Shown piece by piece: positions 446-23,596 of a stretch of DNA of 64,000 nucleotides (the stretch's first letter is position 1; each line of letters starts with the position of its first letter). The DNA is from a virus. Where the stretch lies: the IMG/VR virus record IMGVR_UViG_3300018080_000165, positions 1-64,000 of that record. One strand, 5' to 3'. Under the pieces are notes generated by a model that saw only the letters and a list, made by a program, of their open reading frames with translations, was not told where the DNA came from and searched no databases. A program made the position numbers and the translations under genes.

Positions 446-1516
446 TCAGAACTCTTTCGCGAAGTCGTCGAGAACCTCGTCAAGTTCGGTTTCCTTGTGG
501 GTTTTCAGTTCGGCTTCAACTTGTTTGTCGGGAAGTTCTTCCGGCGGGGGTTCCACGATCACTTCGCCTTCAGCATCCTTGAAATCTTCTTTCGTGCCGA
601 TTTTTCCAAGATCGCCGAAAAGACGTTCGATGATTCGAGGACCGGAGATGTGGTCCGATCCTGCTCCGGGAGGGATTCCCTTGTCCCGGTCTTCCATGAC
701 TTTCGTTTTGCGCATCTCGTTTAGCTGCTCGTGTGCGGCGTCTAGACGGGAAGAAGTCTTGTCGTCTATGATCCCGCCCGCCAAGCGTTGCTGGATAAGA
801 CCGAGTTCGGCCGTTTGGAGGTTCGCTTCAATGATCCTTAGCTGCGCCAGCTTGATGTCCTCGATCCCTTCGAGATGGACCGATTCTATGATGTCCGTGA
901 ATCCGCATTCGTAGTCGGGCCTGAACTGGGGGCATTGGGTGGTAAAAGCGCATGTGTTGCATGTGATGGGGGGCAGCTTCTTACCGAATCCCTTGTTCAG
1001 CTTTTCCATGGATCGTTTTTGGGCGGGAGTGAGCGGCTTAGCAGGTTCCGGCGGCGGGAGGGCGTTCTGGTGTTGTGCTTCCGGTTGAGATTGTTGGTTT
1101 GGCTCTTCCTGACCGTCCTTCGTCTCTTCAGGGACTTCCTTGGCACCGTCGCCATTATCACCTACCTTTCCAGAGGGTTCCTCAGTCTTGGGTTCTTCAG
1201 TCTTGACCGGGGTTGTTTTTTCGGGCGGGGGAGAGGGTTCGACAGTCTTCGTTTCGGCTTCCTTGGCGGGTTCCTGGAGGGGTTCCTGTGCCGAGTCTTC
1301 GGTATGCGTTTTAGGGTCGTTCCCGAAAGCGAATGGGGCACGAGTTTTCGGTACAGCATCGTCTGTGCGGCGAAAGGCACCTTGCACGCCTTTTCGGTCC
1401 TTCCGGGGCGGTTTTCGCTTCACCGAGCACGCTTTGGGGCGCTTCTTGGCCTTGCCCGAAAGCGTGCTAGGTGGGGTGTCCGAAAACGTGCGAGGCGGCT
1501 TCCGGCGCTTACCCAT
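446..1516 (-). CDS. Hypothetical protein: basic/low-complexity N-terminus, Cys cluster (CNTC-x5-CP-x8-C), helical C-terminus; possibly terminase small subunit-like
   Basis: 356-aa ORF with AGGAGG RBS; Cys4 motif seen; function is inference only. Confidence 0.4.
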   Translation of the reverse strand: MGKRRKPPRTFSDTPPSTLSGKAKKRPKACSVKRKPPRKDRKGVQGAFRRTDDAVPKTRAPFAFGNDPKTHTEDSAQEPLQEPAKEAETKTVEPSPPPEKTTPVKTEEPKTEEPSGKVGDNGDGAKEVPEETKDGQEEPNQQSQPEAQHQNALPPPEPAKPLTPAQKRSMEKLNKGFGKKLPPITCNTCAFTTQCPQFRPDYECGFTDIIESVHLEGIEDIKLAQLRIIEANLQTAELGLIQQRLAGGIIDDKTSSRLDAAHEQLNEMRKTKVMEDRDKGIPPGAGSDHISGPRIIERLFGDLGKIGTKEDFKDAEGEVIVEPPPEELPDKQVEAELKTHKETELDEVLDDFAKEF

Positions 1517-1533
1517 GTTAGGGTTCCTCCTGG

Positions 1534-2845: not shown

Positions 2846-3162
2846 AAACTCTCCAACCTCTTGAGAGCATTGAGTGCTTCATTCCACTTGGCCATGTTTC
2901 TTTTTTTGTTTACGTGTACACGCCACTCCCCTTTGTCCGGTCCTTTTGTGTACACCGATACGCGAATCCTTTCTCGGCACATGAAACAGTATTCATAAAC
3001 ATAGTTGTACACGGAACCGATTTTCATTCGCTGATATATTTCTCCCATGCAGTCAAAGCACATATAGATTTCACAGCACCCATATATGCAAAACAACTTG
3101 TACTTGATAGGGCACCGGCATCTTGCGCATCTCGCGATTCTTTTTTCACCCTGTAGCATCAC
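2842..3162 (-). CDS. Cys-rich hypothetical protein
   Basis: CARC...CIYGCC...CFDC...CFMC; translationally coupled to neighbours. Confidence 0.55.
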   Translation of the reverse strand: MMLQGEKRIARCARCRCPIKYKLFCIYGCCEIYMCFDCMGEIYQRMKIGSVYNYVYEYCFMCRERIRVSVYTKGPDKGEWRVHVNKKRNMAKWNEALNALKRLESL

Positions 3163-4442
3163 TTGTCTCCATAGAACAAGTCCATACCTTCGGAGTCCAA
3201 ACGCTCGACGGGATCAACCTCAGGATCATCCCGTTTGTGCGTGACGAAACGGGGTTTGAACTCTTCAGGCGATGTTCTTTTCCTCGCGCCTGCAGAAACA
3301 AGAAGACCGAGATTGTACGCGCGTCTGAGCGCGTCCAGTTCGTCTGGTTTTGGGTTGGCCATGTCCGCGATCTTCTTTGCCGCGTCATCGGTGAACAGGA
3401 CACCCACATCTTCCGGCGGATTGCTCACGATCCATTTCTTGATCGTCTTCAATCGACCGTGTTGCAGACACGAGAACAGGTAAGCCCGTTCCCGTTTGTC
3501 TTTCATGTCGAGGTTGCCGATCTCTTCTTTTGACAGCCCTTGGGTCAAGAGATACCCCTCAATGCCATCGTCGCTGGCACTCCTCACGACCATGGGCTTG
3601 GGCATTCTCTTTTCCCAATACGCCTTGACCCGATTCACTTTCGCGAGGTATGCTTCCATCTCGACGAACGAAAGCATGTTCATGCGGATTACCTCATAGT
3701 AATCCTCGCTTGCGATCTTGCTCCAGTCAAGCCCAGCGTTTTCGAATTTCACGCGATAGGTCCGGCGGATGTCCTTCTTCGTGTTGTCGTACCGATTGAT
3801 CGTCTTCCCGTTGAAGATGTCCGTCTCCCCGTACTTCGATCCGAGAAGCCACGTTGTCGAATCCACCGAATAGAAGTCGTAGTTCTGAATCTCGGTGCTT
3901 CTCGTGTAGCCGAACACGTGGACTTTGGTCAAGTATTGCCGGGCCGTGGCCATGAGTCGCTGGTAATCGTCGTTAAAGCCGGAACCTATTCCGACGAAAT
4001 CGTATCGCTGGCAGTAGGCTTTGAAATCGTTTTCGTCATGCCACGTGTCGTGCCACACAAAGACGATTGGAACAACGGACTTGTTCATCTTCTCGAAGAT
4101 TTCTTCGCGCCACTTCTGCGCGACATCACCTACAATGGTGTCGATGTCCAGTTCCGCCGCGCAAAAGATATAGTCCCTGTATTTGCGGAGAAACTTGGCG
4201 TAGTCCCTCACGTACCTCTCGTAGAACTTGAGCGGCTTCTTCCATCCCTTCATAAAGAAGGTGAACGCACCCGAGTCAATGAACACGTCGATGTCGGGGT
4301 CCGCGTCCTTCCGCCGCTTGAGGTAGTCAGGATTCTTTCGCAGCGTCCAGTACGTCATCAGCACCGACTTGCCGCCCATCTGCTTCATCGAATCGTAGAA
4401 CTTAGGGACTTCACCACCGGACAAAAACACACGGGTAGGCAT
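3159..4442 (-). CDS. dpdA: DpdA-like (TGT-fold) 7-deazaguanine DNA transglycosylase with C-terminal extension
   Basis: FIDSGAFT, ELD, VWH, VGIG, KVHVFG, YSVDSTTW motifs of the TGT/DpdA family; que genes in the same genome. Confidence 0.75.
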   Translation of the reverse strand: MPTRVFLSGGEVPKFYDSMKQMGGKSVLMTYWTLRKNPDYLKRRKDADPDIDVFIDSGAFTFFMKGWKKPLKFYERYVRDYAKFLRKYRDYIFCAAELDIDTIVGDVAQKWREEIFEKMNKSVVPIVFVWHDTWHDENDFKAYCQRYDFVGIGSGFNDDYQRLMATARQYLTKVHVFGYTRSTEIQNYDFYSVDSTTWLLGSKYGETDIFNGKTINRYDNTKKDIRRTYRVKFENAGLDWSKIASEDYYEVIRMNMLSFVEMEAYLAKVNRVKAYWEKRMPKPMVVRSASDDGIEGYLLTQGLSKEEIGNLDMKDKRERAYLFSCLQHGRLKTIKKWIVSNPPEDVGVLFTDDAAKKIADMANPKPDELDALRRAYNLGLLVSAGARKRTSPEEFKPRFVTHKRDDPEVDPVERLDSEGMDLFYGDK

Positions 4443-11627: not shown

Positions 11628-11659
11628 CGGGAGTGGGGACTTTGACATCCCCACTCCCG
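11628..11659 (-). terminator. Rho-independent terminator-like hairpin
   Basis: 12-bp perfect stem cgggagtgggga/tccccactcccg followed on the minus strand by TTCTTTC. Confidence 0.6.
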
Positions 11660-16360: not shown

Positions 16361-16690
16361 TCAAAACGCGAAAGAACCTTGCTTCGCTTTCTGGCCAACG
16401 TGCTTACCCCCACCTTTCTTCTTAGCCTTCAACTCCTTGTCCTTCCTGGCTTGCGCGGCCATCTTCGCCTTGTACGAGATTTCGTACAACTCCATCATCT
16501 CGTCCAGCTTGGACCGGACGCCTTTCGGCGTCCACTTGCCCTTGAGCCAGTACGCGCAAGCGGCGTACATGTGAGCACCCGCCTGGGTGTCGTCGGCTTT
16601 CTTGGCTTCCTTGATGGCCGTAAGACTCTCTTTCTTCTTGGCCGGTTCCTTCTCCTTGACTGCCTTCTTCACAAGCTTTTTCTTTGCCAC
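16361..16690 (-). CDS. Basic hypothetical protein ending ...KAKQGSFAF
   Basis: AAGGAG RBS, GTG start. Confidence 0.6.
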   Translation of the reverse strand: MAKKKLVKKAVKEKEPAKKKESLTAIKEAKKADDTQAGAHMYAACAYWLKGKWTPKGVRSKLDEMMELYEISYKAKMAAQARKDKELKAKKKGGGKHVGQKAKQGSFAF

Positions 16691-16693
16691 TCG

Positions 16694-17131
16694 TTATCTC
16701 CTTTTCTTCCACACATCCCGGAAGTACCAGCCATACTCGGGAACACCATTGCCGTCGATCCTCTTGCACACCTGTCGGAGCGCAAGATCGAACAGTTCGA
16801 AGATGTCATCCTTGATGTCGTTCCGGTCTCTGCCGGAAATGGTGATCTTGAATCCTACGAACTGGGGACGCACAATGACAGTGTGGTATGTCCACCCGTC
16901 GTAGAATCCATACTTGTTCATGTGGTGAAATGATGTGTCGAAAACCAACTTCTCTGCCGTCGAACGGTTGCAGTCCAGTGTGGTTCCGTCGTCGAACCCG
17001 CCCCCGGACGGATAAAACTGCTCTTCCATCCATTGAAGTGTGCTGTAGTACGCGTGCGTATGGTCATCCGTGCACCTTGTCAGCGCGTTGAGAATGGAAG
17101 ACAACTCCTGTGCCACGGTGTATTCCGACAT
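16694..17131 (-). CDS. Conserved-looking hypothetical phage protein
   Basis: PSGGGFD...SFHHMNKYGFYDGWT motif; AAGGAG RBS. Confidence 0.65.
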   Translation of the reverse strand: MSEYTVAQELSSILNALTRCTDDHTHAYYSTLQWMEEQFYPSGGGFDDGTTLDCNRSTAEKLVFDTSFHHMNKYGFYDGWTYHTVIVRPQFVGFKITISGRDRNDIKDDIFELFDLALRQVCKRIDGNGVPEYGWYFRDVWKKRR

Positions 17132-17155
17132 TTGAATCTCCTTTCTTCTCCGAAC

Positions 17156-17500
17156 TCAGACACGAGCCTGTGCCTTCAACTCTCCGTTCGCTGCGATCTC
17201 GTCTCCGTCCTTGAAAGGGAAGCCGCGTTTCCATCCTTCGTGCCAATACCACACGTGGGAATGTTGGCTGATCCTGTAGTTCCCAGGCAAGTACCGATTG
17301 ATCCGGTCTTTCGTGGTGACGGTCTCCCATCCGCCCGTCACCACGATGATTCTGCCGTCCGGCTTGAAACGTAGGATGTTGGTTCTGTGCAACCGGACGC
17401 AGATGTCCTTCCCGTCCCGCTCCAAGTAGGTGTTGTTCGTCAACTTACGGCTTTTCTTACACCTGCCTTGAAGCAAACTGTCCGCTTTCTTGTAAGTCAT
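17156..17500 (-). CDS. Hypothetical phage protein
   Basis: VRLHRTNI...TGGWETVTTKDRINRYL; AAGGAG RBS. Confidence 0.65.
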   Translation of the reverse strand: MTYKKADSLLQGRCKKSRKLTNNTYLERDGKDICVRLHRTNILRFKPDGRIIVVTGGWETVTTKDRINRYLPGNYRISQHSHVWYWHEGWKRGFPFKDGDEIAANGELKAQARV

Positions 17501-17898
17501 TCCCGTTCTCCTTTCTTCTTCAAGAGTGTTTTGACGGCCCATTTGCGCATTGCCGCCCATTCGGTTCCGACACTGTTCCAACCCCCGCCCTTGTTCCAGG
17601 CGTCGTACAACTCTTGCGGGAGCGGAATGCCTTGCTCCCACGTCTTGCGGGAAACAGTCTTCGGCAAGCCGCTGTTACCGTAAGCGCCGCACACGAAGAC
17701 AGTCCTGTTCTTGACACGGGCACAGCCCATCATCCAATGTCCGCATTGCCTGAGTGCGACCTTGCGGACGATTCCACGTAAATTGTTTTTCTTACCCACG
17801 TCCTCATCGTCCGGTTGCATGAGGATCAAAAACGGAGCGCGTCTGTGATGCTGCTCCGTACCTTTGTAGTACGTCCCTGCTTCATCTGTCACGTACAT
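17497..17898 (-). CDS. Hypothetical phage protein
   Basis: 133-aa ORF with RBS, coupled to the next gene. Confidence 0.6.
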   Translation of the reverse strand: MYVTDEAGTYYKGTEQHHRRAPFLILMQPDDEDVGKKNNLRGIVRKVALRQCGHWMMGCARVKNRTVFVCGAYGNSGLPKTVSRKTWEQGIPLPQELYDAWNKGGGWNSVGTEWAAMRKWAVKTLLKKKGERE

Positions 17899-18268
17899 GC
17901 CGGTTCTCCTTTTTCATCAACCGGAATTGACCAGAACATATGGTCAATCTGCCGGACATCCTGTCCTTCTTGTTCTTTGCTGCGCACACATAGTTCTTCA
18001 AGCTACCGCCGGCAGGAACACGGGTTTTCACCCCGCATCTTTGGCAAACAACATCCCTTGTCTTCCGAACATACACCGTCTTTGCCTTCTTCTTCGTTTT
18101 GGTCCCGCTCCCGAAGATTTCGGGATGGCTCTTTGCCAAGCGTTTGTTCACCGCTTCCAGAAGCGCGTTGTTAGGATCGTTGTCCATCGCTTCGCCCAAT
18201 TTCACGAACTCCTCATCCCGAAGATGCTCTTCGAGAACCTTCGCTGTCTTCACGAAAATCGCTTGCAT
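17882..18268 (-). CDS. Hypothetical Zn-ribbon protein
   Basis: CQRCG...C...CSG; AAGGAG RBS. Confidence 0.6.
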   Translation of the reverse strand: MQAIFVKTAKVLEEHLRDEEFVKLGEAMDNDPNNALLEAVNKRLAKSHPEIFGSGTKTKKKAKTVYVRKTRDVVCQRCGVKTRVPAGGSLKNYVCAAKNKKDRMSGRLTICSGQFRLMKKENRHVRDR

Positions 18269-18321
18269 GATTCTCTCCTTTCAGATTGTGTTTTCGTCAC
18301 TTGTGAAAACGAAGAAGTCAA

Positions 18322-18669
18322 TCAACCTTTCTCACGTAGCACACACCCACCAGTGCTCTCTTGATTTCGTGTTCGGCGGACTTCTTCGCTTCGAGAGCAT
18401 CCTCTTCCCGACGATGTACTCCGTACTCGGGATGGATTCTCGACTCTTCTTCCGTTGTCATCGTACCCTAGAGAACGCGCGGCTTGATGGACGTACTCAG
18501 CAAACTTCGCGTCCACCGCCGAAAACTCGACGCCCTGTTCTCTCATTGCATCGACCGATTCCAAGGTCTTTTCCCCGATCTTGGCGATGTCCAGGATGTG
18601 CATGTCGTCTTCACGACCCAAGACGACAGCAACTTCGTACAAAAACGCTTTGACACGACCCATGGTCAT
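18322..18669 (-). CDS. Hypothetical protein, first gene after the long leader RNA
   Basis: GAGGGAG RBS before ATG. Confidence 0.55.
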   Translation of the reverse strand: MTMGRVKAFLYEVAVVLGREDDMHILDIAKIGEKTLESVDAMREQGVEFSAVDAKFAEYVHQAARSLGYDDNGRRVENPSRVRSTSSGRGCSRSEEVRRTRNQESTGGCVLREKG

Positions 18670-18699
18670 CTCCCTCTCTTTCTTCGGTTCACTTCTCAA

Positions 18700-19358
18700 A
18701 GGCCACTAGCAGTGCTCCCGGCGTTTTCGCGATCCGCCGCTTTTTGCGTCGCGCCTAACCCGCGCTTTCAAGCCAACGTGCCGACCTGTTCCGCGCTCGT
18801 GACGCCGCATTTTGTTTTCGGCTTGAATCGACATACCAGAAGCATTAGCTAGGGGTCTTTTCCCCTATCCACGGCGAGACTGCGACTTTGCACGTGCATT
18901 CCCCGCGACCTGGCCTATCGGCACGGCCCGCTATGGTTTTGGATTGCCTTACGGGACGAGGTTTGCACGCGACAGCTTTTGCCAAGACTTAGAACCTAAC
19001 CATTCCGGTTTTCTGGATTAGGACGGGAGCGAAGATGGCCCGCTTGTCACCACCTAGCCCGATCCGCCGTTCGTCCGAAGGTCTGCTTGGCCGCTTGTCC
19101 GTCTCTGTGTGTTCGCAACCGGGTGCTTTCCCGGTCCACTCGCGGTTTGCGGCCCGCCCCTAGCAATCGTCTCCCGACGATTCCGTGGGCGCGAACCCCG
19201 CTCTTAATCCTGCGATTCATTCCCGCGACCTTGGCTTGCTCCGTTGGATTCGGCTTCAGGCCGTACCCTAGCTCGGGTTCCCCGCGCGTCACATAGAACG
19301 CGATAACCGGGTTTCGCCGTCGCTCGTAAATCGCTCAATTGTCAAAGAACATTATACT
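18700..19358 (-). ncRNA. Candidate large structured non-coding RNA or antitermination leader (~650 nt)
   Basis: No credible ORF; GC-rich; several perfect hairpins, a long-range pairing and an internal direct repeat; preceded by a promoter and boxA. Confidence 0.6.
19339..19351 (-). promoter_or_regulatory. boxA-like antitermination element TGTTCTTTGACAA
   Basis: Two mismatches to rrn boxA TGCTCTTTAACAA; lies just downstream of the predicted TSS. Confidence 0.6.
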
Positions 19359-19365
19359 ATGTGGC

Positions 19366-19393
19366 ATTATAGCGAAATGCCAGCATAGTGCAA
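19366..19393 (-). promoter_or_regulatory. Strong sigma70-type promoter TTGCAC-N16-TATAAT
   Basis: Consensus -10 with an AT-rich upstream tract; palindrome TTTCACGTGAAA at 19409-19420. Confidence 0.7.
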
Positions 19394-19554
19394 GCACAGA
19401 AAAAACTTTTTCACGTGAAATTTCACTAATTCCTGCACATGGTGCACAAGTGCAGGATAGGGCCACATCTGCTTATAGGTTATCACATGACGGTAGACGG
19501 GGTTTACCAGATTACCTCTATGCGAGCAAAGAAAGGGTATAAGTGACCTTGAAC

Positions 19555-20370
19555 CTATGCCATGCCGAGAAACTTGTGAACCTGTGGGACAAACCTGACG
19601 GCCAAACACCTTTTCACATCGTCGCTGAACGGAAAGGCAAAAGCACATTGATTTGTTTCACGTTGGTTTGAAAACACCTTGTCTTTTTCGGAAAAGATTC
19701 CACTCTCCAATATCACCTTTATCGCATCTGGATGGCCGTCAGCGGGTTGGATGAAAACTTCTCTCACAAAGACTTCTTCTTTCAGGATTTCCTCGACTTC
19801 CCTCATGTCCTGTTCCGTGCCGACAACGAACTTGAAATAGCAATTCGTCATATAACGGACCAATGTAGGAAGCGCACTGCGCCTACCGGAGCTAGAGAGT
19901 TTCGGAGAAATGATCCATGCGTCAATGCAAACGAAATGTTTCGGATCGCACTTGTCCAGAAGTTCCCCGTTCGTTTCGATTGAAGTCCCGAACGCCGGTT
20001 CGATCTCTTTGCAGATTTGAACAATCTGTGGAAGGAAGATAGTAGGCTCACCGCCAGTGAAAACAACATGGCGCTTGTGAAGAGGAAAAGACTTCAAAAC
20101 AGAAATAACATACTCGACAGATAACGAAAGGTGTTTTGTTTCCGCCTGACTCGGTTTGATATTTTCCGGTTTGTAGCCGCTATCGCACCAACTACATGTT
20201 CGATTGCATCCAAGAGTCCTCAGAAAAACAGAAGGAAGGCCAACTGTTGGACCTTCCCCGGAAATCGTCTCATAAATTTCATGTACACCAATTTCTTTAG
20301 GAGTTCCTTGCCTCCGCATAAGATGTATTCGTTTCCCAAACGCGAAGGGAGTCCAGTCTTGCGGATTCAT
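19555..20370 (-). CDS. queE: 7-carboxy-7-deazaguanine synthase (radical SAM)
   Basis: EIYETISGEG, FLRTLGCNRTCSWCDS, VVFTGGEP, IETNG, ISPK, PQVHK. Confidence 0.92.
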   Translation of the reverse strand: MNPQDWTPFAFGKRIHLMRRQGTPKEIGVHEIYETISGEGPTVGLPSVFLRTLGCNRTCSWCDSGYKPENIKPSQAETKHLSLSVEYVISVLKSFPLHKRHVVFTGGEPTIFLPQIVQICKEIEPAFGTSIETNGELLDKCDPKHFVCIDAWIISPKLSSSGRRSALPTLVRYMTNCYFKFVVGTEQDMREVEEILKEEVFVREVFIQPADGHPDAIKVILESGIFSEKDKVFSNQRETNQCAFAFPFSDDVKRCLAVRFVPQVHKFLGMA

Positions 20371-20713
20371 GCTCGAAACACTCCTTCATCTCCGCGAACC
20401 AATGAAGCGCCAACACTTCAACCGTAGGGTCTTGATGGATTATGAACACGTGTTCCCTGAAGCCGCCCTCAATGAGAACGCCCGCGAGAGGATCGTCTAT
20501 TTTGAGAACGACTTTATGATCCCATCTCTCCACGACGTGTTTCAACTTTTTGAGTTCCGCGAAGTCCACCACAAATCCGTTGTCGCCTATGTTGCCGTAG
20601 GCCGTCAACTCCACGCGGTAGTTGTGCCCGTGCAAGAAACGACACTTCCCTTCGTGCCGCATCAACCTATGGGCGATAGAGAACTCGCCCAAAAATTTCG
20701 TTACCTTGACCAT
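20297..20713 (-). CDS. queD: 6-carboxy-5,6,7,8-tetrahydropterin synthase
   Basis: AHRL...GKCRFLHGHNY, VVDFAELK, WDH, PTVE, RVWET. Confidence 0.92.
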   Translation of the reverse strand: MVKVTKFLGEFSIAHRLMRHEGKCRFLHGHNYRVELTAYGNIGDNGFVVDFAELKKLKHVVERWDHKVVLKIDDPLAGVLIEGGFREHVFIIHQDPTVEVLALHWFAEMKECFEHESARLDSLRVWETNTSYAEARNS

Positions 20714-20717
20714 TAGT

Positions 20718-20915
20718 TTACCTCATTCCTAGGCTACCTCTTCCTTTGTCCTTGCACGCATTCCGACCGAGTTTTTGTTCGATCCACACTTGCGCCATGG
20801 GCCGATCTTCTTTCTTCAACGTCTTGAAATCCTCAAAGCACTCATTACACACGGCATGTCCCGCGATTGTCCTATGAGGATTCCCTTCGTTTTCCCGGCA
20901 GGCGCAACATCTCAT
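20718..20915 (-). CDS. Small Zn-finger protein
   Basis: CCAC...VCNEC. Confidence 0.5.
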   Translation of the reverse strand: MRCCACRENEGNPHRTIAGHAVCNECFEDFKTLKKEDRPMAQVWIEQKLGRNACKDKGRGSLGMR

Positions 20916-20918
20916 ACC

Positions 20919-21224
20919 CTACTCTCCTTTGTCTTCTTCGGATTTTTCACCTTCATCTTCCTTGGGCGCTTCTTCAGGGGATACGACAGTCTTCGGAGGA
21001 GCGTCAAAGACGTACTCGACAGTCTTGTTCTTTACGGCTTCGGTGAAATTCCGAAACATGTTCACGCAATCGACACGGTTCTCGTAGCCTTGCCCGCCTT
21101 GCGAGCCGGTGCCGAAGAGATAATTCCCGTTGGCACTGTACACGCTTACCTCGTGTTTGGCTTTCTTTCCCTTTCCCTGCCTGCTGAACACGACTTGATG
21201 AGTCATCTTTCCTGAAATCGCCAT
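20919..21224 (-). CDS. YegP/DUF1508-like protein (an in-frame upstream TM segment from ~21329 is possible)
   Basis: SANGNYL...SQGGQGYENRVDC pattern; AAGGAG RBS at ATG 21224. Confidence 0.5.
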   Translation of the reverse strand: MAISGKMTHQVVFSRQGKGKKAKHEVSVYSANGNYLFGTGSQGGQGYENRVDCVNMFRNFTEAVKNKTVEYVFDAPPKTVVSPEEAPKEDEGEKSEEDKGE

Positions 21225-21386
21225 TGATTCGCTCCTTTCTTTCTCTTCAATCTTACTTCTCCAAAAAGCAAAAAACGACAATGCTCCCACAAGAGCTATG
21301 ATCGTGAGCGCATACATTAGGTCTACCATGTGATCTCTCATGGTTTTACTCGCTCGTGATTCGAAGTTCTCCAAAACAGCGCGTCG

Positions 21387-21676
21387 TGGCTCCCCCGCCT
21401 GGATTCGAACCAGGAATCGCGGATTACGCAGAAAGACGGAGCCTCCCAACAGTAACGGCACGATGACAAACAGCACAGAGCAACACGCACTTCTCAGCTT
21501 CTTTCCGCAGTCGTTCATATGATTCATTACACCCAGCAATTACAAATAGCTTTCGTATGCCTTTTCGATGATGAAAGTCAAAGCCTTCTCGCCCATCTCG
21601 CGTCGGCGTTTTGTCTTCGTCCCTTTCTGCATTTTCAATCTCCTTCGCCGTCGTGATACCATTTCACCACAGGGAA
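21387..21676 (-). tRNA. Split/interrupted tRNA (Asn-like): 5' half 21676-21647, 3' half 21426-21387
   Basis: Acceptor TTCCCTG/CGGGGGA + G + CCA; D-arm GTGA-AATGGTA-TCAC; perfect T-arm CCTGG-TTCGAAT-CCAGG; anticodon loop replaced by a ~220-nt insert. Confidence 0.7.
21424..21632 (-). pseudogene. Decayed HNH endonuclease inserted in the tRNA anticodon loop
   Basis: AAGGAG RBS + MQKGTKTKRRREMGEKA, then in another frame DFHHRKG...EAEKCVLLCAVCHR...SA*. Confidence 0.65.
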
Positions 21677-22243
21677 TCATTTTATGTGCTCCAGGATTTC
21701 ATCCTTGACTTGCAAACCCGCTTGCCCGAGCACGACGCAGACTTTGGTCGCCGCATGGATGTCACCAGTTCCCGTGCATACACACGCATGGTGGGCCTTG
21801 GAGAGAACGCAAACGGCTTCAGGTTTGAGCCTTTCTTCAAGCTCTGCGGCGATTCTATGCGTGAACTCTTCTTGAAGAGTTCCGACCTTCGAGAAGAATT
21901 CAACCAACTGTGGAAGTTTCGAGAATCCGACGATGTGTTTTCCTGGTAAATAACCGATTCCGACTGTCCCATAGAACGGCACGAAGTGATGTTGGCAGAT
22001 CGATACGAAACAGATGTCTCGCATGACAACGATGTCGTTCCCTCTTGATTTGAACAACTTGAAGTCGAAAGGTAATCGGTGAGGATAGCGATCATTGATC
22101 TTGTCCTTGTTCGCTGTCATCTGTTCAAGCATCTTGACGACACGCCGGGGAGTCTCCAGCGTTTCGTTCTTCAGCTTTATGCCTAGATGGTGGCACATCC
22201 GGGCATAGGCTTTTTCAGCCGATTTACGCTTTCTGGCGTTCAC
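21677..22243 (-). CDS. folE: GTP cyclohydrolase I
   Basis: ETPRRV, SICQHHFVPF, GFSKLPQLV, LQEEFT, HHAC. Confidence 0.92.
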   Translation of the reverse strand: MNARKRKSAEKAYARMCHHLGIKLKNETLETPRRVVKMLEQMTANKDKINDRYPHRLPFDFKLFKSRGNDIVVMRDICFVSICQHHFVPFYGTVGIGYLPGKHIVGFSKLPQLVEFFSKVGTLQEEFTHRIAAELEERLKPEAVCVLSKAHHACVCTGTGDIHAATKVCVVLGQAGLQVKDEILEHIK

Positions 22244-22925
22244 AGAACTCCTCCCAACCCTTCTTTCGGAGTAAGCAAGCTGGACATTTTCCGCATCCGT
22301 GTCCCCAACTGTGTTTGCCTAACCCTGTGTTATAGCAAGTCGCTGTTTCAGTCAAGATGGTTTCCAGAACGCCCAACTCATCCGCTGCTTCAAAGATGCG
22401 CGCCTTCGTCATGTTTATTAACGGCGTGAACAGGCGCACAGTGTTCTTAGGCAATCCCAAGGCGAAGTTGATAGCGTCTTCACACGCAGCAACAAACTCA
22501 TAACGGCAATCAGGATAGCCGCTGGAATCCGCTTGGCACACGCCGCTGTAGATGTGCTCTATCCCCCGGCTGACGGCCACTCCGGCAGCGATAGAGAAGA
22601 ACACCATGTTCCGGCCAGGAACAAACGACGTGGGCAATCCCTTGAACCTCTTGCTTTCCTCGATCTTCTCAAAACTGTACCCTGTCAGAGCGGAATCGAG
22701 GAGTGCTCCGTAGTTCTTCAAATCAACGGTGTCGTGCTTGCGGACTTCGAAGATTTTCCCTATCCGCTTTGCTTGGAGCAGTTCCATCTCATGCCGCTGG
22801 CCGTAACAAAAAGACAGAGCATCCACGAACGGATACTTGAAGTTCCGTTTCATCAGCGCAAGACAGGTTGCCGAATCCTGTCCGCCGGAAAGAAGAATCA
22901 GTGCGCCTTTTTGTCCTGATTCCAT
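22224..22925 (-). CDS. queC: 7-cyano-7-deazaguanine synthase
   Basis: LLSGGQDSATC, YGQRH, TSFVPGRN, SGYPDCR, TCY...GCGKCPACLLR. Confidence 0.93.
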   Translation of the reverse strand: MESGQKGALILLSGGQDSATCLALMKRNFKYPFVDALSFCYGQRHEMELLQAKRIGKIFEVRKHDTVDLKNYGALLDSALTGYSFEKIEESKRFKGLPTSFVPGRNMVFFSIAAGVAVSRGIEHIYSGVCQADSSGYPDCRYEFVAACEDAINFALGLPKNTVRLFTPLINMTKARIFEAADELGVLETILTETATCYNTGLGKHSWGHGCGKCPACLLRKKGWEEFCERQKA

Positions 22926-23596
22926 TTCTTGTACACCTTCTGTGCAGAGGTTATCGCGGAAGCCCGAACCAAACATGCGAGGCACACTTCGCAACCTTTT
23001 GGATCGTAGTTGCAGGAATTCGTTTTTTCAAGATCGATGCCGAGACTAAGCGCGAGCAAAGCAACTTGATGCTTCTGGAATCCGCATTCAAGAAACGGCG
23101 CTCGTATCTCGGTGATTTCGTCTTTCGTGAAGCCGCCGACTTCCTGAAGTTCCCGATACGTGTCAAGGAAAGCGGAAGTGCGATCCGAATGCGGTTCCTC
23201 CTCTTCGTGATGGAAACCCACGAACAGGTCCATCTCTTCTATGCTGGCCAAACAAGCGCCCTGTGTGATGAGGAAAGTGTTCCTTCCGTTGATGTAGTCC
23301 TTGGCAATGGAACTGCGTCCAGGTTCTATCTTCTCGCCAAAGCGGAAAATCGGCCCGCCTTTGACTTCATCTTTCATCGGTATGTCAGCCCTGTGCCTCA
23401 CCAAGAATCCTCTCCCGAGAACTCCTTGATGATACTCGACGTACTCTATGGACTTTTCTGTTGTCACTTGCCCGAAGTCAACGACCAAGTTGATGATCCG
23501 TTCTTCAGGGTTCACTCCGTACACAAAGGGGTTCTTTGCGATGGCATAGAACAGCGCGGTAGAATCTAGTCCTCCAGAAGCCAGGATCACGGGCAT
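22898..23596 (-). CDS. Divergent QueC paralogue (PP-loop ATPase)
   Basis: ASGGLDS, DFGQ, YINGRN, SCNY...GCEVCLACLVR; YPDCR replaced by HSDRT. Confidence 0.8.
   Translation of the reverse strand: MPVILASGGLDSTALFYAIAKNPFVYGVNPEERIINLVVDFGQVTTEKSIEYVEYHQGVLGRGFLVRHRADIPMKDEVKGGPIFRFGEKIEPGRSSIAKDYINGRNTFLITQGACLASIEEMDLFVGFHHEEEEPHSDRTSAFLDTYRELQEVGGFTKDEITEIRAPFLECGFQKHQVALLALSLGIDLEKTNSCNYDPKGCEVCLACLVRASAITSAQKVYKKWNQDKKAH

Follow-up and report, generated by a model that had tools for sequence, protein, structure and literature searches.

A candidate boxA-headed leader RNA in front of a small-gene operon of an uncultured sediment/seawater phage

Introduction

What does a densely coding phage genome do with a gene-free stretch of almost nine hundred nucleotides? 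The question is raised by an uncultured phage from sediment/seawater, represented by a linear IMG/VR virus record of 76,077 nt with an estimated completeness of about 79%. The first 64 kb of this record were analysed here and are called the window below; nearly all genes of the window lie on the minus strand. Between the stop codon of a QueE-like gene (19555) and the start codon of the next gene (18663) there is a gap of 891 nt. An earlier inspection of the letters (the sequence-only reading) had called this the largest gene-free stretch of a densely coding window, and the gap is indeed the longest in our rough gene map.

Nus-factor/boxA antitermination is textbook knowledge for lambdoid phages and is documented for T7. 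The T7 boxA antitermination element is found downstream of the early promoters used by the host RNA polymerase (PMC3709561). The boxA of a nascent RNA recruits NusB-S10 and suffices to prompt assembly of an antitermination complex, and boxA is also present ahead of suhB and CRISPR operons (PMC13753749, PMC12360218). Phages and prophages also carry ROOL and GOLLD, two kinds of large ornate RNA (PMC12286853). The coordinates of the features are collected in Table 1.

Table 1. Features of the gap and of its surroundings (window coordinates unless a contig is named).
Feature	Position	Strand	Remarks
DpdA-like transglycosylase gene	3159-4442	minus	further downstream of the gap
Strong terminator-like hairpin	11628..11659	minus	13 bp (9 G-C), T-rich tail
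First operon gene	18322..18663	minus	ATG at 18663; ~113-115-aa product P0001, no relatives
Whole untranslated stretch	18664..19359	minus	~696 nt from the predicted transcription start
Ribosome-binding site GAGAGGGAG	18679-18671	minus	ATG follows after 7 nt
Predicted rod-like hairpin	18706..18852	minus	147 nt, just upstream of the ribosome-binding site
Complementary pair TTCAAGCC/GGCTTGAA	18827-18820 with 18774-18767	minus
5-6-bp hairpin (T)AGGGG/CCCCT(A)	18850..18867	minus	6-nt A-rich loop
Complementary pair ACGGCGA/TCGCCGT	19320-19314 with 18877-18871	minus
7-bp hairpin GACCGGG/CCCGGTT	19117..19136	minus	6-nt loop; inner part (19135-19118) is the motif of the sequence-only reading
7-bp hairpin, GGGA (GNRA-type) loop	19165..19182	minus	pair probability 0.98-1.0
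Predicted 5' domain	19200..19350	minus	z -1.52; prediction only
boxA word TGTTCTTTGACAA	19339..19351	minus	~+8 to +20 of the predicted transcript
Predicted sigma-70-type promoter	19366..19393	minus	TTGCAC (19393-19388), 16 nt, TATAAT (19371-19366)
Overlapping palindromes GTGAAATTTCACGTGAAA, then A5/T6 tract GAAAAAGTTTTTTC	19398..19426	minus	read from the sequence
11-bp inverted repeat, 5-nt loop	19431..19457	minus	after the QueE-like gene
FolE-, QueC-, QueD- and QueE-like genes	19555-22994	minus
AT-rich ORF-free stretch of two other contigs	L176:700-1564 (865 nt); L178:~560-1520		metagenome contigs, one sample series

Results

The phage and the neighbourhood of the gap

The phage is, on sequence grounds, distant from every cultured phage; no phage record matches its DNA polymerase at more than 32% identity. 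Upstream of the gap in the sense of transcription lies a 7-deazaguanine (queuosine-type) cluster with GTP cyclohydrolase, QueC-like, QueD-like and QueE-like genes, and still further upstream are the genes for the DNA polymerase, a DnaB-like helicase and a UvsX-like recombinase. The set of FolE-, QueC-, QueD- and QueE-like genes together with the DpdA-like gene indicates that a 7-deazaguanine derivative probably stands in place of guanine in the phage DNA.

Metagenome runs from sediment and seawater, made in several studies, contain the gap stretch with no letter changed, and no RNA run is among the runs listed as carrying it. Contigs of four DNA runs (sediment, seawater) are letter-identical over 16500-21500, so that no population variation could be used. 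Logan contigs of three runs break in the 3' part of the QueE-like gene, where the depth dips. The contigs of one run break at 19646/19652 and those of the other two at 19646/19779; the interval 19646-19779 may vary between strains or mark a branch in the assembly.

The gap is non-coding and GC-rich

A codon-usage score trained on the long genes of this phage reaches 7 to 22 per 180 nt in the flanking genes, and no frame is consistently positive within the gap. The longest internal ORFs (81, 46, 44 and 42 aa, as well as those of the plus strand) have no match in PHROG or Pfam, and a tblastn search of phage records with the 81-aa ORF gave no match. Since neither a codon-biased frame nor an ORF match was found, the gap is real and non-coding, as the sequence-only reading had it; the stretch is neither a protein-coding gene nor a pseudogene by these measures.

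The GC content of the gap (58.2%) is unusual for phage non-coding DNA; only ~1% of equally long windows reach such a value (genome mean 51%, SD 3%). The untranslated stretch consists of 33% G, 25% C and 16% U (GC 58%). At the predicted transcription start the base composition shifts from T-rich upstream to G- and A-rich, and the latter composition is that of the transcribed strand of the downstream genes.

A predicted promoter precedes the stretch and an operon follows it

Sites of the form TTGNNN-N16-18-TANAAT occur just twice on the minus strand of the 76-kb record, and the predicted promoter is one of the two. It was skipped in a consensus promoter scan because its -35 hexamer, TTGCAC, matches the consensus at 3 of 6 positions only. 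Transcription would start near 19359. The palindromes GTGAAATTTCACGTGAAA and the A5/T6 tract GAAAAAGTTTTTTC lie directly upstream of the -35 hexamer and form a candidate regulator site with an UP-like tract, and the 11-bp inverted repeat may be either an operator or a weak terminator for the unit upstream. The overlapping palindromes are perfect (GTGAAATTTCAC and TTTCACGTGAAA). Together with the inverted repeat (all within 19398-19457, minus strand) they may be operators at which a regulator of phage or host origin binds.

No intrinsic terminator was found between boxA (see below) and the first gene, and no consensus -10 hexamer was seen when that interval was read. Lacking a terminator or an internal promoter before the first gene, the stretch fits better as a leader than as a separate RNA gene. 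The hairpin at 11659-11628 is the first strong terminator that follows on the minus strand, and it likely ends the ~7.7-kb operon headed by the leader. That the stretch heads a small-gene operon had been claimed before, and the claim is supported: the predicted promoter is on the strand of the operon, boxA is at the start and the stretch is non-coding. The position of the stretch behind a sigma-70-like promoter, with an rrn-type boxA at its start, argues for an untranslated RNA that is made ahead of the operon.

Some features of the genes themselves were recorded in passing. The codon-bias signal of the first gene weakens near 18480, past which another frame (ATG 18461 to 18318, 47 aa) scores better; the annotated C-terminal tail of the product is of low complexity and rich in Arg and Ser. 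Overlapping genes or a frameshift are possible explanations of this frame switch. Two operon proteins belong to unannotated phage families. For the 145-aa protein (16694-17131, minus) the family is large and numbers 1,890 representatives at an E of up to 0.001. That of the 133-aa protein (17497-17898, minus) is widespread, with 69 clusters at 39-63% identity and many invariant Gly, Trp and Met positions. Elsewhere in the window there is a separate small unit (24383-24011, minus). Its promoter, TTGCAA-N16-TAAAAT, is at 24383-24356; next come a strong ribosome-binding site and an ORF of 51 aa (24239-24084) with an extremely high content of Arg and Gly, and then a terminator-like hairpin and T run at 24064-24011. 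The ORF could encode a nucleic-acid-binding peptide.

The transcript would begin with an rrn-type boxA

The boxA word TGTTCTTTGACAA begins 14 nt past the TATAAT hexamer. It is therefore placed in the promoter-proximal untranslated RNA of the predicted promoter, and no coding frame follows for ~690 nt. It is the only exact match (zero mismatches) to TGYTCTTTRAMAA in the window. The word fits 10 of 11 positions of GYTCTTTAANA, a consensus that is gammaproteobacterial (PMC5725501). When one mismatch to the 11-mer consensus was allowed, nine boxA-like words were found in the window and eight were expected from shuffles. Because loose matches occur at chance frequency, the case rests on position, strand and exact identity to rrn words. 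A perfect match to the 11-mer consensus, GTTCTTTAACA, lies at 2493-2503 on the plus strand, opposite to the genes, and was taken as chance.

The exact 14-mer TGTTCTTTGACAAT (the boxA word plus one base) was scanned in one genome per prokaryotic species and found at no fewer than 120 loci. Among the 120 matches listed, it is on the same strand as universal 16S/23S motifs in 12 and lies 50 to 715 nt upstream of such motifs in 11. The taxa with the 14-mer by rRNA motifs include, among the matches listed, Planctomycetaceae, other Planctomycetota, Rhizobiales, Mesorhizobium, Nitrospina, Sumerlaeota and Bacteriovoracaceae; at a Kordiimonas locus the 23S motif is on the other side of the 14-mer. rRNA operons take up well under 1% of a genome, yet the 14-mer is found upstream of them, so it is a genuine rrn boxA in several phyla. 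Some phyla that carry it at rrn typically live in marine sediments. The word TGTTCTTTGACAA is thus identical to genuine rrn boxA words and is in the right place and orientation. Derivation of the leader from a host rrn leader was considered and rejected: across the 120 loci listed and five candidate genomes the identity ends at 19 nt or less, and the leader was therefore not copied from those rrn leaders.

Folding of the stretch

The stretch had been described as highly structured, which the folding did not demonstrate. The 695-nt fold has z = -0.05 against dinucleotide shuffles, and 150-nt windows have a mean z of -0.77 within the gap versus -0.64 (SD 1.1) in the flanking genes, so the local values are like those of the neighbours. 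Every motif listed in the sequence-only reading was recovered at its place on the minus strand. The three local hairpins are present and robust in the base-pair probability matrix, with a pairing probability of 0.85-1.0 over most of each stem (0.3-0.6 only for the two outer pairs of the hairpin at 18850-18867). Perfect hairpins of at least 6 bp were counted four times against a shuffle mean of 1.1 (P ~0.05), and 14% of genome windows equal this count; the four are three distinct hairpins, as the first was counted at two loop sizes.

Other proposals fared less well. Both long-range helices, TTCAAGCC/GGCTTGAA and ACGGCGA/TCGCCGT, have a pairing probability of 0.00, and by our own arithmetic a stretch of 690 nt should contain ~14 pairs of complementary 7-mers by chance alone. 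The closing of a ~450-nt domain by ACGGCGA/TCGCCGT is thus at chance level. The near-identical internal repeat of 18 nt does exist (19235-19218 and 18914-18897), and its score of 24 is within the range of shuffles (19.4 +/- 2.6, maximum 30). The word CGGCGGATCG occurs twice, at 19069 and 18739. We rejected an ancient tandem duplication, which two repeat pairs ~320-330 nt apart might suggest, as the halves fail to align beyond the 18-mer. A relation of CGGCGGATCG to the RfaH ops element was also rejected; the two have just GGCGG in common.

Three parts may be distinguished in the predicted fold, with boundaries that were picked after folding. The 5' domain is predicted as an interrupted ~26-bp helix (19350-19316 with 19235-19200) with a small branched tip, in which boxA would become partly paired after synthesis of the full RNA. 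The middle part has z = -0.43. The rod in front of the first gene has z = -2.50, and 5 of 200 shuffles fold equally well, again for boundaries set after folding; it may be regarded as a candidate RNase III-type processing stem. No long leader-trailer (RNase III) helix encloses the RNA in the predicted fold, which has only two 7-bp long-range helices. A duplex energy test of the 5' and 3' ends gave P 0.013, a marginal value from a method unsuited to the question.

Searches for known families and relatives

Comparison of the whole window with the Rfam 15 covariance models, which the sequence-only reading had proposed as a check, gave no match at gathering threshold. ROOL, GOLLD, OLE, HEARO, raiA, introns, riboswitches and ribozymes are all without a match at that threshold in the window. 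At E up to 10, the region 18500-19600 gave five chance-level matches only, each of them located at the promoter. No family of put-type antiterminators (in HK022, a two-stem-loop RNA that works on polymerase with no protein factor) appeared among the Rfam matches either. Neither a tRNA nor a tmRNA was detected by ARAGORN. A blastn search of phage records with the stretch had no match, and exact-pattern scans of viral contigs returned 0, 1 and 4 matches, which were bare seeds with no extended similarity. Searches for related loci with the first-gene protein or the QueE-like protein also found nothing: the first-gene protein matched only itself among 5.8 billion proteins (an identical copy is on nine contigs), and the best relative of the QueE-like protein is 39% identical and comes from a 1.1-kb contig. 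Since no homologue was found, covariation gives no evidence either way.

Ninety-nine loci with the 133-aa gene showed no likeness to the gap by blastn or nhmmer and no boxA word; these loci have only one or two genes in common with the window. Two unrelated contigs with this gene family (L176 and L178) carry a different ORF-free stretch directly before a series of small genes. The copies share 73% identity, and in their two-sequence consensus fold 21 pairs have changed on both sides with pairing kept. Rfam gives no match to this stretch at E up to 1; it is likely a large RNA of phages that is not yet catalogued. The covariance model built from its core found no match in any other locus fetched. 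Homology of the gap to this RNA was tried and rejected, as the core model scores 12.9 bits on the gap with most of the model deleted. The case shows that large RNAs ahead of such operons exist, and it illustrates the kind of comparative support that related copies can give.

Discussion

We put at about 0.5 the probability that the stretch is the ~696-nt 5' leader, anti-terminated by Nus factors, of a ~7.7-kb small-gene operon. The minus-strand operon, with roughly 20 small phage genes, would run from the host-type promoter (19393-19366) to the terminator at 11659-11628. About 8 nt into the nascent transcript, boxA would bind the host NusB-NusE (S10) pair, which together with NusA and NusG would make the RNA polymerase resistant to termination. 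The resistant polymerase would then cross ~700 nt without ribosome cover and continue through the operon, as happens in the rRNA operons of bacteria, at lambda nut sites and in the early leader of T7. The body of the leader, which is GC-rich, would fold into local hairpins and a rod before the ribosome-binding site, and it may also serve processing or stability. Promoter activity, Nus-factor binding, antitermination and any processing are what we infer here.

The arrangement has likenesses to several known systems. T7 has an RNase III site ahead of its first early gene, and a long hairpin just before the first gene is common to T7 and, as a prediction, to this locus. Both also have a host-RNA-polymerase promoter (predicted here), then boxA in an untranslated leader and then small phage genes (PMC3709561). 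The leader of this phage differs in being longer (~696 nt) and GC-rich and in having one promoter versus three in T7 (A1-A3), and the two have no sequence similarity. Bacterial rrn leaders consist of a promoter, boxB-boxA-boxC and a leader-trailer helix and work with NusA/B/E/G, SuhB and S4. The likeness to rrn leaders lies in the boxA word, identical to words upstream of 16S/23S genes in several phyla, in the A/T tract upstream of the -35 hexamer, in the 16-bp spacer and in the long untranslated RNA that follows. However, the product here is not rRNA, protein genes follow in the same unit, and 7-bp closures only are predicted in place of a long leader-trailer helix. The lambda pL-nutL-N region is alike in that boxA comes early in the leader ahead of the first gene of a phage operon of small genes. 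Unlike in lambda nut, boxA is not followed at a few nt by a boxB hairpin with a GNRA-like pentaloop; CGGC-CUGAA-GCCG, the small hairpin closest to it, is ~75 nt further downstream and differs from boxB in loop type. Among the genes downstream, no N-like (arginine-rich) antiterminator protein was recognised, and their small products have no family match. We take the boxA of this phage to be of the rrn type, unlike the weaker lambda type CGCTCTTA. The suhB and CRISPR boxA elements of Gammaproteobacteria are examples of boxA outside rRNA operons, where it governs how a long untranslated or poorly translated RNA is transcribed (PMC13753749, PMC5725501). Those loci are cellular, and the suhB boxA is near the ribosome-binding site and represses, whereas the boxA here is ~660 nt upstream of the ribosome-binding site. 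With ROOL and GOLLD the stretch has in common the size class and the location in a gene-free part of a phage genome. It differs from them in having no covariance-model match even at E up to 10, no relatives and no excess structure.

Two observations sit uneasily with a leader role. Only 10% of the 78-nt windows of the leader have more C than G; being G-rich and C-poor, the leader looks like a poor Rho substrate, and a need for antitermination is not obvious. A leader role alone also leaves the length of 690 nt and the GC content of 58% unexplained. For these reasons we keep alive, as an outside candidate, the reading of the stretch as an RNA in its own right. By this account an RNA of a new structured class, ~650 nt in length, would be made rRNA-style, from a strong promoter with boxA, and processed out of the operon transcript, which we consider unlikely. 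The GC content within the top ~1% of genome windows is in its favour, as are the three robust hairpins, the sub-domains with z of -1.5 and -2.5, and the typical position of cellular boxA ahead of stable untranslated RNAs. The different ~800-nt RNA ahead of small genes in L176 and L178 adds that such a layout exists. Against this, the structure is no greater than that of neighbouring sequence, no homologue was found and hence no covariation, no Rfam family matches, the 3' end has no terminator and the stretch fails the core model of the L176/L178 RNA. It is doubtful that the phage mimics the layout of a host rRNA operon (A/T tract, promoter, boxA) to mass-produce an RNA of a new class. That such an RNA acts as a scaffold, decoy or sponge, and that this is a wider, largely undescribed habit of phages, is a speculation to which we give a small chance.

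The stretch might instead have no function, as a spacer or the decayed remains of a lost gene, with boxA there by chance or irrelevant and the promoter upstream. The lack of relatives, the chance-level structure, repeats and long-range pairings, and the loose boxA matches as frequent as chance would all agree with this. But an exact rrn-type boxA that is correctly oriented and no more than ~20 nt away from where transcription is predicted to start would then be a coincidence; no residual coding signal or protein similarity is left, the GC content is unusually high, and an inert gap of 890 nt is costly in a densely packed phage genome. We consider such a remnant improbable. A replication origin is far less probable again. 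It would work after the manner of ColE1 RNA II and the T4 and T7 origins, with a stable RNA-DNA hybrid of a G-rich transcript priming the Pol I-type polymerase of the phage. The transcript is G-rich (G 33%, C 25%) and the locus adjoins the replication/nucleotide-metabolism module (DNA polymerase, DnaB-like helicase, UvsX-like recombinase), but there are no iterons and no repeat family, the GC-skew trend is unchanged at the site, and we know of no role of boxA at replication origins.

The case presented here is that of an exact rrn-type boxA at the head of an unusually long, GC-rich untranslated RNA in a remote environmental phage. As a single instance this is suggestive rather than striking. 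If the stretch is indeed an anti-terminated leader, rRNA-style antitermination extends to environmental phages. The boxA word would then also be a clue to the host, because the rrn boxA of the host should read the same. A promoter followed by boxA and an ORF-free stretch may also serve as a simple criterion by which to look for non-coding RNAs in phages.
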